Notes: generated by a model not told the origin, from the letters alone. A stretch of DNA of 64,000 bases from Euglena gracilis (GCA_039621445.1 CP154954.1:6583425-6647424), one strand, 5' to 3'; shown: positions 28,501-53,800, counted from the first letter of the stretch. Program-made: numbers and translations.

Positions 28501-31500
28501 CGGTGGGACCCCACGAGGCCCGGGAGCTGCACTGTGCGCCGCATCCCCGTGGCCTGGGAAGTTGCTCTGAAAAGTCATATGTTTTGTCATTTTCGCGTGT
28601 GTTCTTGTGTTGTTGATTTTTTAATGAAATAAATCGTCCATTGTTACAATTTCAATTATCATGTTACATGCACATATTGGATATTGAATATGAAATAGAT
28701 ACTGTAATTAAAAAAGACAATAGATCAATAGATAATTATGTGATGATTCCATTTTCATTTGCATGTGTCCATGCATATTATGTAAACAGATTTTATGCAA
28801 ATCTCATAAACATCTGAACCTGCTTTTGCTTTCTCGGGTTCTTTGTGGTTTCTCGAGGTTCTATTCGTGAATCTGTTTTCTGTGCTCTCAAACGAGATGT
28901 GGCGGACCGCTTGAGCGCTCGCATGCAGGAGCCTGGCAATGTATGGCAGGTACTATGGGAGGAGTCTGCGGCGCTCCCGGCCTGACCCCCTCCTCGTCCT
29001 CCACATATCACTCCAGGGGATGGCAGCGTGCCTCCAAAATTGTACCACTGTGTTGCGGGGGTCCTCAAAGTAAATATGGTCTAAGGATGCTTGATTTCTC
29101 CATCAGGGTTTTTTTTTAGTCTTGTTAGGGTGGGTGGGTCTGGCCGAGCCCCCCCTCCCTCTCGGGGGGTCCCCCCAGGGGGAGTGGGGTGTACTTTTCA
29201 GCGCCGAAGGCGCCGAAAATTTGAGAAAAGGAGCTATTTTTAGCATTTTTTGCGATTTTTGGCCATTTTCGGGAAAATTGAGTGGGTCCCTCGGGACCCC
29301 CCCGGGGCCCCCAGGGGGTGGGTGGGGGGGGGGGGACTCCCCCCGGTCTTAAAAAAAAGCCCCTGTTCTCCATCTCCCCGTGGTGAAATTCCTTTCTTCA
29401 TAGAGACCCCAAGCCAAGGGGACAATGATGCTTTTTTTTTATTCTGTTCCTGGCTGAGAATTGGCTTAGAGATCGAAGGTCGTTGGTTAGCGATGCGTTT
29501 TTTTTTGGGCGTTATTTTTTCAGTTATGCAATAATTCGAATCGCAGTAAATTTGCGAATGTTGCGAAGTAGTCTCATAAACCAAATGACATTGATACCAA
29601 AGCAAAGGAATGCCAAAGGAATACCAACCGAATAGCTGAAACTGACAACGTGGCAGTTGTCTCAGCCGGCGACGTTGGGGTTCATGCTTATGGAGGTGGA
29701 TGGTGTCCGCACCCCCCCTCCCCCCCAAGCTGGGGCTCCACCCAGGGACCCCATATGGAAAGAAGGCTGTGTCCTCTTTTGGGTACTTCCAGCCAAGGGC
29801 CAATCAGTCAGAATTTTAGACGGACCTCCCCCTAAGAACCCCTTCCCCGAACAAGATAATGATCTTACTGAGGTCGTTAGTCGCCAATTCAGGAGGTGAG
29901 AACCCCCCCCCCCCCAGTCTCCCGGCCATAAACCTATTCATTTGCCCCCCCCCCCCGAATGCTGGGGTGGGGCTGTGGGGGGGGGTCAGCGGCCAGTTTC
30001 AGAGCAGCGGCAGGGGTTCGACGCGGTGCGGGAGGCCAACGTGGCACTGCACTTCCTGGAGCAGCTGCCGGTGCCCGAGGTGTTGCCGGGGCCTGGCGAC
30101 TGGTCTTGGCCGCCCAAGACTTCCGGAATGTGGCGCATACTGCGGTCCGTTCCAGCAGTGAATCTGAAACGCAGCAGAAGGACCGTCGGAGCCCCCAATG
30201 CCTGTTTATTCATCAACTGCTTTGGCCGCTCTGCCTTTTCTCTCTCCTTCAATTTGCCCGCACTCAACTTTCGGCTTGACTAAACCCATCAAACCTGATT
30301 AAAGCTTCAGTTTTTTTTTTTGGCACCGGTGTGCCATTACCCGTCGAAAACCCCCCAAAATTTGAACCTTCACAAAGCCCTCGCGCTCCAAACACTTAAC
30401 CCACTGTCTGCCATGCACAGGTGCTGCAGTGCCTGGCGGACCACTGGGTGGTCATGGCGTTCGCCGCCCTCGCCCACGCCCCCATCACGGCGCTCGTCCC
30501 CCACGCCCGCGCGCACGCCCAGCGCCTCGCGGACGCCCTGACGGCGGCGCTGGTGCCCGGCCGCCCCCTCTCGCTGGAGAGGTGTGCGGGGCGGGGGCAA
30601 ACATGCTTGGCTTGCCATCCCTCGTCCAAGAGGGTGCGCTGCAATTTCCTTTTCCAGTATTAGTACAGATTTTTCATTCTCTGACTGAAAATGTTTGTCG
30701 CATAGAAGCAAATTCTTTTTAAAATTTTTCGTACATTCTGTGGACATTCAAATGTCCACTTATGTCCGCTTATAAAAGTACCTTTATGTATATGTAACCC
30801 AAAACCGAACCCTTTCCCAAACTCTAACCCTAAAACCGTAACCCTAATCCTAACCCAATCCCAACCAGTATTGATGAATCCCCCTCCCCCGGAGGTAACT
30901 GCTTTCCTCTGGACATGCCAATCCCAACGTTTTATTTGCTGTTTACTTGACTTTGTTTTTGTTTTGTTTTTTTTTGGGTTGAACGATTTCCCTTCCCTCC
31001 AAAATACATAAATTTTTATAAGTAATAAAAAAATAATAATCATAAAATCATAAAAGAAACTACCCACTTAGTTTAGTGCACCGAAGTCGAAGTCCAGGAG
31101 ATTTGGTAGTTTTGGGTGGAAAAGTTACTGTTTGGGCAAGTTTTTCACATGGCCCCTGTTTGCAATTTGGGAATTCTCACACAACACATGCTCCATTCGA
31201 CGTTCATTTCGGTAAAACAGGTGTCCCAAGCCTCCTTCGTCCCCCCCCACCAGGGAGGTTTATTATGCCTTCGTTTTGATTTTGTTGGCCCAGGGGCGTC
31301 ATCCGTGTGTGTGGGGGGTGTGGGCAGGGGGGGAACACAAATGCGGTTTTTTTTGGTTTTTTTGGTTTTTCGAATTTTGGCAAAATTTGTTTTTTGTGTT
31401 TTGTTTTCCTGACACTTTTTGGATTTTTGTTACATCCTGGGGGAGCACCTGAAGGATTTTATATGCAATTTGCGTTTTTTTTTTGCGTTTTGATTGCCCT

Positions 31501-50873: not shown

Positions 50874-53800
50874 ATGAAGTGGGGGGAGGTGCTGTTCCAG
50901 CTCACCTCCACCTCCAAAGAGGTCCGTGCTGGCGTGGTCCAGGCCACCCTCCTGCCCAGGCCTCTGGGGACCCCAATACAGTGTGGGTCGGGAGGCCCAT
51001 CTACAGTCTGGACAAAAATGACGGGAACCAAAAACGATGGGGAAAAAATTGCCAGGAAAAACTGATGGGAAATTTCGATTTGGAAAGATTAATGATGAGA
51101 AGTCCAACTTTTCATGGAAAACGGTGGTAATTTTTCCCACTGGTGATGAAATTTTTCCAGCAAAAAAGGCAACCCAAAATTCCCAAAAATGGTCAAATTG
51201 GCCTTCTGGGTGACTTTTTGTGGTTTTTCATTGAAAAAATACTTCCAAAAATACCCTGGCTTAACAACGTACCCTTCCCCCCAATAGAAGCCCTGGGGTT
51301 TGTAATGGACAAAAGCCCGAGGGGTTTTGAACGTGTCCATTTAGCCGACCCCCAAGGCCTGCCCCCACCGTTCGTCCAGCAGGCCACCGCCCTCAGCCCC
51401 GACGAGGGCAAGGGCGTGGTGGGGGTGGTGCTGGCCTCGGTGCTCGGCTACACCCACGACCGCCGCACCCGGCATCTGCTGGAGCAGGTGCCCACTGTGA
51501 GACGTACCCCCCCCCCAGTCCAAACATTCAATCTGTGGCGCTTCAATATGGCTGCTAATTCTAACCCCTCCACAGAGGGTTTAGGAATGTATCCTGTGAA
51601 AGCCGCCTGCAGCTGAATGTTGGCAGGGTGGGTATTTGATTGGAAACGTAATTCTATCTTTGCACAAGATTCATTGCGTTTCCCGCAAGCTCCTCACTGT
51701 GAATTTCCTTGATGAGTTTAGAGATGAAGTGCAAAGGAATCGCGTCGAACTGTTCTTGCATTTGATTCTCGCCCAACTCATCTGCGGCCAAATGCAACCA
51801 TTTGGGATACCAAAGGTTAATTGATTTGGTGTGATCATTTGGTGCGAATTGCCACCATTTATTGCCACCAAGTGCAATTCACAACACCAAACTTGAACAG
51901 TTTGACACATGTTGGTCAGCAAGTTCTTTGAAAGAGATGCAATTCCAAATGACAAGTTGTCGGGCTCATTCTTTCTTGTCCCCCGAAAGATTGACTACCT
52001 CTCCTCCATCATACGGCTCATTGGTTCATTTTTGCGCACCAGCACAATCACACACACCCTGGCAATGGTGCGAGCACACTCAGAAGCACCCACACACATC
52101 CATAATACAGTCACGCATACACGTGCGCATCTGCATTCACACACAAGCACGTGTGCGCACACATAGCACACGAGAGCACATATCATACATGCATGCACAC
52201 GTGCACACACGAATGCACAGAGGCACTTACACACGCACAGGTGCACATGCACACTCACACGCAGGCACGCATATGCGGACAAATATTTGCGAATATGCGC
52301 CAGGTGGTCACCAAGGCCGCGGCCATCGACGGTGCAGCAGAACACCTGTGCAAGGCGGCAGTGCTCGCTCTCGGACGGGACCAGTTCGCTCCGGAGTCCC
52401 TGGGCCCGGAGGCGAGAGCTGAGGTGTTGGATTGTTTCCAGTCTACCATTATTGTATTTCAGAAATTTTTGAAAACAATGTTGCAGCAAAATGGTTTTAT
52501 TGTCTTATTTTTTTTGTATTTCACATTGGTTCACCAGAACACCAAGGGTTGTTGAATATCTAAATGGAGGAATTGGTGTCTGCAATTATTTTTGCAATTT
52601 CCACATCTTTCCACAATTTCCGCAATTTCTCCGGAATCTTCTGCATTTTTTCCCTTTCCGCACTTTTTTTTGCAACACAACTCACAACGCACACACACAC
52701 ACACACACACACACACACACACACACGAACGTGTCTGCTCGAGCAGGTCAAGCTGCACTCACGCCTGTGTTCACTGGAACCCGCCCATTTGCCCTCCTCC
52801 CCACCACACTCACGCCCCCACCCCCCCCCACACCCGCTCCCTGCCCCGCCCCCCCCCGCTCCCCGCCCGCCCGCCCCCCCCCCCCCCCCGCCCCCGCCGC
52901 GCCCCCCGCCGCCGCGCCCCGCCCGCCCTCGCCCCCCCCCGCCCCCCGCGCCCCTCCCCTCCCCCTCCCCCCCCGGCCCGGCCCGTCCCTCTCCTCCTCC
53001 CCCCCTCCTCGTCGGCCCGGCGGCCTCGTGTGTGTGCTGGCCGGCTCCTTGGTTTGGAAGTCATTGATCTAGTCGTCTCTCAATTGGCCCAAGGTTTACA
53101 GCTGGAAAACATTTGAACCATTTTTCTGTGTCTTGCAAAAAAGTTCGAGAACATTCAAATGGGTGTCCCAGTCCTATTCACAGGTAGTGCAGGTGGATTT
53201 CGCCACAATTACCCATACCTGAAGCCTACCCCGTTCCCGCCCCCAGCCATAATAATAATGACTCCTGTCCAGATTGATGGCGGTCCGTCTTATCTGTATT
53301 GCGTTGAAGCAGGGTTTTTGAACGGTGGTTCATCCAGTGCAGCCTGGCTCCGATGCGGCTCCCGCGGCGCAGCTCTTTGCCATCCGTCCCCAGCTGGTGC
53401 CCTACGCCGTGGCAGTGGTGTGCGCGCGCCATGCGATGTGTTGCGAACAGGGGTTTTTTTTAGTCGTGGACCCCCGGGGGGGGGGGGGGGGGGGAGGGGG
53501 GGTGGGTCCGGCCGCGCCCCCCCCCGGGGGGGGGTGTCCCCCCGGAGGGGGGTAGGATATACTTTTCGGCGCCAAAGGCGCCGAAAAGTGCCATTTTAGA
53601 ACTTTTCGCGATTTTCGGCCATTTTTTTGTGGGTCCCCCAGGACGCTCCCTCCCTGGGGGGGGCCCCCCAGGGGGTGGGTGGGTGGGGGGGACCCCCCCT
53701 CCCCCCGTCTTAAAAAAAAACCCCGGGTTGCGAATGGGTGGGTGGGTGGTGGGTGCCGCTGCATCGCCCTTGATCCAAGGCAGGCGTTTCAATCTCTGTT

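Follow-up and report, generated by a model that had tools for sequence, protein, structure and literature searches.

A nonconventional intron of Euglena gracilis composed of a miniature transposable element and one copy of its target site duplication

In Euglena gracilis, intron 2 of a gene coding for a zf-CCHC protein consists of a MITE (a miniature transposable element with inverted repeats) together with exactly one copy of the 8-bp target site duplication (TSD) that flanks it. The gene lies in a stretch of 64,000 nucleotides (GCA_039621445.1 CP154954.1:6583425-6647424), here called the window, for which a model working from the sequence alone had listed seven other elements with CAG...CTG-type ends (the sequence-only reading). 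Six of these seven are nested in introns or in the spacer between two genes. We consider it likely that the elements, 260-520 nt in length, are non-autonomous cut-and-paste MITEs whose terminal inverted repeats (TIRs) and TSDs are built in such a way that splicing removes the element and one TSD copy.

How the nonconventional introns of euglenids arose and how they are removed is still debated (statements on the literature refer to parts of openly accessible main texts). A MITE origin was proposed in 2013/14 (Milanowski et al., PMC3935182), taken up again in a review of 2024, where the repeats are called "TSD-like" (PMC11282704), and repeated in a 2025 PNAS study, according to which the origin "remains unclear" (PMC12501133). 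In the same study nonconventional introns comprise ~70% of all introns of Euglena agilis, and the splice code is given as a stem that pairs between CAG and CTG, with a spacer of 3 nt ahead of CAG and one of 5 nt behind CTG, the spacer lengths being of importance; the code is sufficient in synthetic 50-bp introns, which are spliced when built to it, and ~548,000 "slidable" introns were set aside (PMC12501133). The link between MITEs and introns is therefore a published hypothesis, and the present case supports it in a concrete and countable way, the direct example being an intron made up of MITE plus TSD. The findings turn the hypothesis into a test in which such cases can be counted genome-wide.

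Intron 2 of the zf-CCHC gene

The element that forms intron 2 lies within the span covered by the sequence-only reading and is missing from its list. Its terminal sequences TAGGGGTTTTCTAAAG and CTTAAGATAACCCCTG directly abut the 8-bp repeats on both sides and are inverted repeats of each other (score 14 in gapped TIR scoring anchored at the element ends). The transcript-derived protein EG_transcript_22677 reads ...THAAAAGQVAATK, which needs exactly one copy of GGCGGGGC. Since the TIRs are flanked by the repeat and the protein crosses a single repeat, intron 2 is a TIR element plus one 8-bp TSD copy, and its length of 404 nt is that of the 396-nt element and one 8-nt repeat copy taken together. 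There are nine equivalent border positions, as set by the 8-nt repeat, and none of them gives GT-AG or GC-AG. Intron 2 is thus lost from the transcript-derived protein and has borders other than GT-AG, as is characteristic of nonconventional introns. When the border is placed at 39138|39543, CTG is found at -8, and the 5' triplet is TAG instead of CAG. The termini resemble those of family A described below, and the body is a distant relative of elements C and E.

The listed elements had been regarded as a pool able to seed new introns. Intron 2 agrees with this, as an element of such a kind can evidently be an intron. It also means that a spliced exonic insertion occurs within the window itself, in the form of a loose relative of the elements at 41859 and 47144.

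Elements and element families

A reading of the sequence and a script check both bore out the coordinates, the ends and the flank scores of the seven listed elements (Table 1). CAG is found at the start of all seven and CTG at the end of six, the 3' terminus of A2 being CCCCGG, mutated to CGG. When the intron-2 element is included, flanking repeats of a fixed length of 8 bp are found at eight elements, perfect in A1, B1, C, A2 and the intron-2 element and imperfect in B2 (7/8), E (6/8) and D (5/8). TIRs are located at the exact ends in B1 (18/18), D (11/12), A1, A2, B2, E and the intron-2 element (gapped scores of 11, 13, 12 and 11 for A1, A2, B2 and E), C having a score of only 6 and no TIR of this kind. 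The elements are small (262-517 nt), noncoding and present in several copies: the 64 kb hold two copies of A, two of B and three loosely related copies (C, E and the intron-2 element).

Table 1. Elements and genes of the window (positions counted from its first nucleotide)
Feature	Position	Strand	Length (nt)	Ends or TIR	Flanking repeat (TSD)	Remarks
Intron-forming MITE (intron 2)	39142-39537	+	396	TAGGGGTTTTCTAAAG...CTTAAGATAACCCCTG (TAGGGG...CCCCTG)	GGCGGGGC, perfect 8 bp, at 39134-39141 and 39538-39545	
MITE A1	29104-29365	+	262	CAGGGTTTTTTTTTAG / CTTAAAAAAAAGCCCCTG	TTCTCCAT, 8/8, at 29096-29103 and 29366-29373	
MITE B1	34035-34506	+	472	perfect 18-nt TIR CAGGGTTCGATATAAGGA	CTTTAATC, 8/8	
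MITE D	36965-37258	+	294	CAGGCTTCTTTT / CAGGCTCCTTTT, 11/12	GCATACGG / GCACAGGA, 5/8	
MITE B2	38166-38682	+			AACCCGAC / AACCCAAC, 7/8	
Element C	41859-42364	+	506	weak TIR	GTCCCACG, 8/8	
MITE E	47144-47517	+	374	CAGGCCACTGCTCAGG / CAGGCCATTGCTTAAG	TCTCAGAA / TCCCGGAA, 6/8	
MITE A2	53448-53726	+	279		GTTGCGAA, 8/8, at 53440-53447 and 53727-53734	homologue of A1
zf-CCHC gene	37674-48796	+				10 exons; zf-CCHC_3, PF13917; EG_transcript_22677
Rab3-GAP catalytic subunit homologue	4556-35580	+				PF13890; at least 24 exon matches to an 868-aa reference protein

On sequence comparison, with each z-score taken against 40 block shuffles, the elements fall into at least four groups. A1 and A2 are homologous from end to end (z=26.7), and B1 is homologous to B2 (38166/38337; z=25.6). 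The third group is loose (intron-2 element and C, z=6.4; C and E, 5.4; intron-2 element and E, 4.0), and its three members have a subterminal CTTAAG block in common, which reads GGTCCTTAAG in the intron-2 element and E and GCTTAAG in C. D makes up the fourth group. The description of the elements as a pool of MITEs with CAG...CTG ends and 8-bp TSDs is consequently supported.

B2 is interrupted by a tandem duplication (38154-38495, period 171, 94% match), which comprises 12 nt of flank and the first 159 nt of the element and postdates the insertion. C is composite: 41859-42296 resembles the intron-2 element and E, and the last 68 nt (42297-42364) come from a different repeat of high copy number, the source of the CCCTG end. 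At 42289-42358 the summed depth of DNA contigs is ~700,000, in comparison to ~110-180 for single-copy contigs, and the RNA reads that cover it extend upstream into another sequence, with loose ends before 42289 in 147 and 114 reads. The segment belongs to a repeat that is expressed and of high copy number.

Pairs of CAG and CTG are numerous, and the combination of these triplets with 8/8 flanks does not by itself exceed chance. Among 29,544 CAG...CTG pairs 60-1500 nt apart, six have 8/8 flanks; the number in ten offset controls ranged from 0 to 8, with a mean of 2.8. If the two ends are fixed beforehand, an 8/8 match has a chance of 1.6e-5. One could hence argue that some of the listed elements, chiefly the one at 41859 and possibly those at 36965 and 47144, are chance pairs in DNA rich in repeats and G/C runs, the more so as one 8/8 pair in the window (57335-57693, see below) is a proven false positive and C combines a TIR score of 6 with a composite 3' end. 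On the other hand, GTCCCACG is not of low complexity and the body of C resembles the intron-2 element and E at the z-scores given above, D and E have TIRs anchored at their ends, and A1, A2, B1, B2 and the intron-2 element are beyond such an explanation. We find the chance reading doubtful for the elements in question and accept the elements as real because they have TIRs and belong to families, which goes beyond bare triplets and flanks. Of the seven, C is accepted with the least certainty, owing to its weak TIR and composite 3' end.

Automated scans recovered the elements in part. A strict ungapped TIR and TSD scan of the window returned two elements only, and an unbiased one returned 166 rows, mostly palindromic clusters and microsatellites (0-3 in shuffled sequence). 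A scan starting from TIRs gave 29 candidates, among which flanks of at least 6/8 were found only at 34035, 38166/38337 and 47144. A metagenome scan with the B-family terminus gave no matches.

Several candidates were rejected. The segment 57335-57693 has 8/8 flanks (CTGGCGGC), and its removal would join two open reading frames (ORFs) in frame; the homologous protein P0007, however, aligns through 57661-57693, and the segment is a chance CAG...CTG match in Ala/Leu-rich coding sequence, which calls for caution with automated MITE calls. The pair 10958-11758 (8/8, GGGGGATC) has no TIR and was taken as chance. The 12-mer CAGGCCACTGCT, common to E and the start of intron 9 of the zf-CCHC gene (47759), was given no weight, as by our own estimate the window should contain several 12-mers repeated within 1 kb, and intron 9 and E showed no similarity beyond it. 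Further YAG...CTG pairs with 12/14 TIRs and no TSD are located at 6549-7877, 9896-10142 and 35707-35961, one of them with family-A-like ends (TAGGGGGGTTTTTTTT / CAGGGGGGCTTTTT); they may represent either MITEs of greater age or nonconventional introns.

Genes and placement of the elements

The zf-CCHC gene was recognized through the translation of 41699-41857 (53 amino acids), whose sole protein match was eukprot EG_transcript_22677 (272 amino acids; 100% identity over 79% of the query), and its exons were mapped with tblastn and a custom spliced mapping of that protein. B2 lies in intron 1 of this gene, C in intron 4, beginning 34 nt into it, and E in intron 8. The exon-like segment 29987-30157 matched a homologue of the Rab3 GTPase-activating protein catalytic subunit (868 amino acids) at 86% identity, and the exon borders of this second gene are approximate, the reference protein being ~50-95% identical. 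The two protein matches mark the window as nuclear DNA of the Euglena gracilis type. A1 is located in an intron between Rab3-GAP exons 28911-28967 and 29993-30100, and B1 in the last intron, between exons 32223-32300 and 35443-35580. D is intergenic, between the end of the Rab3-GAP gene at 35580 and the start codon of the zf-CCHC gene at 37674. The earlier statement that the elements sit in introns or spacers accordingly holds for six of the seven on the basis of the two gene maps, A2 being left unplaced: the open frame adjoining it (53322-53447) yielded 16 protein candidates, none at E<=0.01, and a representative search with 57640-57834 gave four matches, none near-identical.

That five of the seven listed copies are found within transcribed introns of two genes, and that full-length circles are formed when nonconventional introns are released (PMC11282704), would also fit a reversed direction of events, in which the introns are mobile via RNA, be it as excised circles, by reverse splicing or through cDNA. 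The free copies would then be introns re-inserted at other noncoding sites that are transcribed. Reverse splicing makes no TSD, however, yet a constant 8-bp duplication flanks different families. TIRs are a hallmark of DNA transposons, and copy D lies between genes. The reversed direction is thus unlikely.

Introns of the zf-CCHC and Rab3-GAP genes

As described in the accessible parts of the euglenid literature, nonconventional introns have CAG at +4 to +6, CTG at -8 to -6, pairing ends, no GT-AG and, frequently, direct repeats at the borders. In the zf-CCHC gene GT-AG or GC-AG is possible in none of the nine introns at any border compatible with the protein. CAG occurs at +4 to +6 in six of them (introns 1, 4, 6, 7, 8 and 9) and CTG at -8 to -6 in four (introns 1, 2, 7 and 8). 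Both triplets are in place in introns 1, 7 and 8, which fit the code in full, and intron 2 fits it in part, with TAG for CAG. The introns of this gene are nonconventional introns as known from the literature.

Reads were compared over 40010-45700; the runs that contain this stretch are not recorded as RNA, and contigs were assigned to RNA by guess. Within this limit, RNA agrees with the borders of introns 3, 6 and 7: the border of intron 3 is seen in a loose end at 41698 that carries the end of exon 3 (four reads in X21, five in X24 and one X15 contig), and the borders of introns 6 and 7 in X15 contig 6, which spans 45079-45174 (exon 7) and continues into exon 8.

In the predicted minimum free energy folds of A1, B1, C, D and E the two triplets, CAG and CTG, are paired in register. 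The cores of introns 1 and 4 are nearly in register and that of intron 7 is less clean, each with one terminal pair off-register or a position skipped, and in-register pairing of the two triplets is absent from the folds of the intron-2 element and the intron 8 core.

Intron 3 (39613-41697, 2085 nt) has neither CAG nor CTG in place; its ends GGTGAGGCCGGCGCC and GGCGGCGGCCTCCCC are ~13/15 complementary and carry GAG and CTC instead. It contains (CTT)41 and (TGATTC)26 arrays. In an X3 DNA contig of 518 nt with a depth of 180, position 40285 is followed directly by 41348. The contig omits 1062 bp (40286-41347), a stretch bounded by the 11-bp direct repeat CTGTGATGCTT, which looks like an allelic or strain insertion/deletion. 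With no TIR and no CAG/CTG ends, the stretch was ruled out as one of the MITEs described here.

Proposed mechanism and its alternatives

The build shared by the elements, that is, CAGG...CCTG-type termini, short TIRs and 8-bp TSDs, would allow the following course of events. A hAT-like transposase encoded elsewhere would act in trans and make a staggered target cut of 8 bp, a step suggested only by the CAGG/TAGG ends and the TSD length of 8 bp. In the RNA, pairing of the TIRs would set CAG opposite CTG. According to the literature, the cuts of the nonconventional pathway lie 3 nt upstream of CAG and 5 nt downstream of CTG, and in both TSD copies this would be the same point, between bases 5 and 6. 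As 3 + 5 = 8, the element would be removed with exactly one TSD copy and the pre-insertion mRNA restored, and because of this precise restoration an exonic insertion would be an intron from the outset. The transposase family, the timing of the insertions and the excision of the nested copies from the pre-mRNA are the parts of this scheme that we infer.

Several observations weigh against this interpretation. Of the 51 longest ORFs of the window (at least 185 amino acids), 20 were searched and gave no transposase and indeed no Pfam family at all, and no autonomous partner was seen. The copies within families are only ~80-85% identical, and the intron-2 element is only distantly similar to C and E (z=4-6). 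The element begins with TAG rather than CAG, and in its fold none of the first 20 nt pairs with the last 25, despite the complementary ends. The code itself is loose, as introns 2, 3 and 5 have no CAG at +4 and introns 4, 6 and 9 no CTG at -8. The TSD is kept in only one of the nine zf-CCHC introns; at the borders of introns 1, 4, 7 and 8, counted by eye, 0 to 3 of 8 bases match. Among the 23 Rab3-GAP introns (113 pairs) none has a YAG...CTG pair with TSD and TIR at its borders, which is a weak test given the approximate borders. Finally, RNA depth is 1-3x over exon 4 and the element at 41859, and the 15 joints examined out of 80 all belong to DNA contigs or to contigs guessed to be RNA.

A different origin of the 8-nt repeats has been put forward for E. 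agilis, in which intron 4 of gapC, a strain-specific new nonconventional intron, is flanked by 8-nt direct repeats ascribed to break repair (2016, PMC4770533). Applied here, it would make the repeats fingerprints of double-strand-break repair, with filler captured at staggered breaks, instead of TSDs made by a transposase. Repair-type indels do occur in this region, as the unrelated 1062-bp difference in intron 3 with its 11-bp repeat and no TIR indicates, and intron 2 resembles the gapC intron in that an 8-nt direct repeat flanks it. Break repair is invoked for gapC, whereas here the figure of 8 nt recurs at free copies of the families, which favours a transposase TSD over break repair. The inserts form repeated TIR families at different loci, with different flanks and a constant 8 bp, and this points to transposition rather than to random filler. 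Repair as the source of the repeats is accordingly very unlikely, and 8-nt repeats earlier ascribed to it are open to reinterpretation as TSDs.

Tentatively, the transposon scheme could be extended to euglenids in general: most of their nonconventional introns might descend from one hAT-like MITE superfamily, the 3-nt and 5-nt spacers being a fossil of the 8-bp TSD and splicing an RNA-level "precise excision". We regard this as possible, though short of likely. If it is true, each new insertion of these transposons is made harmless, and still-mobile sources persist in noncoding DNA. In a bolder extension, part of the splicing machinery may be derived from, or may have co-evolved with, a transposase that recognises the same ends.

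Assignment to hAT and recent activity

MITEs of the hAT type and Ac/Ds elements have 8-bp TSDs and short TIRs beginning with CAGG or TAGG, the consensus start of hAT TIRs being YARNG and that of the target nTnnnnAn. The TSD length of 8 bp agrees with this at the eight elements, five of them with perfect repeats. A1, A2, B1, B2 and the intron-2 element start with CAGGG or TAGGG; D and E differ in starting with CAGGC, and C starts with CAGCG. In the duplications themselves position 2 is T in 4/8 and position 7 is A in 4/8, too small a sample to be telling. Duplications of 8 bp are also found in a few other superfamilies, so that the length is not decisive for hAT. The sequence-only reading, which had spoken of a recently active hAT pool, was in our view partly supported: largely right, it overreached on both of these words. 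The name hAT leans on TSD length and CAGG/TAGG termini, and recent activity does not follow from family copies with the similarity given above, nor from the DNA runs, in which no empty site was seen for the one element compared with them (41859).

Comparison with known systems

In maize the Ds element reportedly behaves as a de novo intron and is removed by splicing (work attributed to Giroux in 1994). Removal from RNA would here use the nonconventional pathway and not cryptic spliceosomal sites as with hAT elements of the Ac/Ds type. Introners, transposon-derived intron families of Micromonas, Aureococcus and dinoflagellates, are said to have been described by Huff in 2016 and Gozashti in 2022. 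An introner arises when a DNA transposon that has TIRs inserts with a TSD and thereby creates an intron, and the mRNA is restored since the length of the TSD fits the geometry of splicing (PMC11282704). The elements of the window are alike in that a transposon with TIRs and a TSD becomes an intron. They are unlike in the signals used: introners have GT-AG spliceosomal sites that derive partly from the TSD, and here a TIR stem is combined with CAG and CTG at fixed distances of 3 and 5 nt, none of the nine zf-CCHC introns having GT-AG borders.

In the accessible parts of the euglenid intron papers, a MITE origin is hypothetical and TSD-bearing copies outside of introns are not reported, whereas in the window nested and spacer copies each have their own 8-bp TSD. 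Nor was there found, in openly available main texts, any description of free Euglena MITEs with CAG...CTG ends and a fixed 8-bp TSD, of a transcript-supported intron equal to element plus TSD, or of a link between the 3 + 5 spacers and TSD length.

Other repeats in the window

Long inverted-repeat clusters with arms of up to 140 nt and palindromes of the TGGGTGGTCGGCCGACTAGTCGGCCGACCACCCA type occupy 377-1450 and 1636-2580 and include one 50-nt pair with 100% complementarity; they are probably transposons of another kind. Many copies of the 40-nt perfect palindrome ATGTTGATGCGCGCATTTGCGCAAATGCGCGCATCAACAT and its variants are found at 18237-20200, in an intron of the Rab3-GAP gene. A further repeat family is represented at 46166-46320 and, 9.6 kb downstream, at 55830-55990 (78-86% identity); its first copy begins ~24 nt into zf-CCHC intron 8, and the family does not start with CAG.

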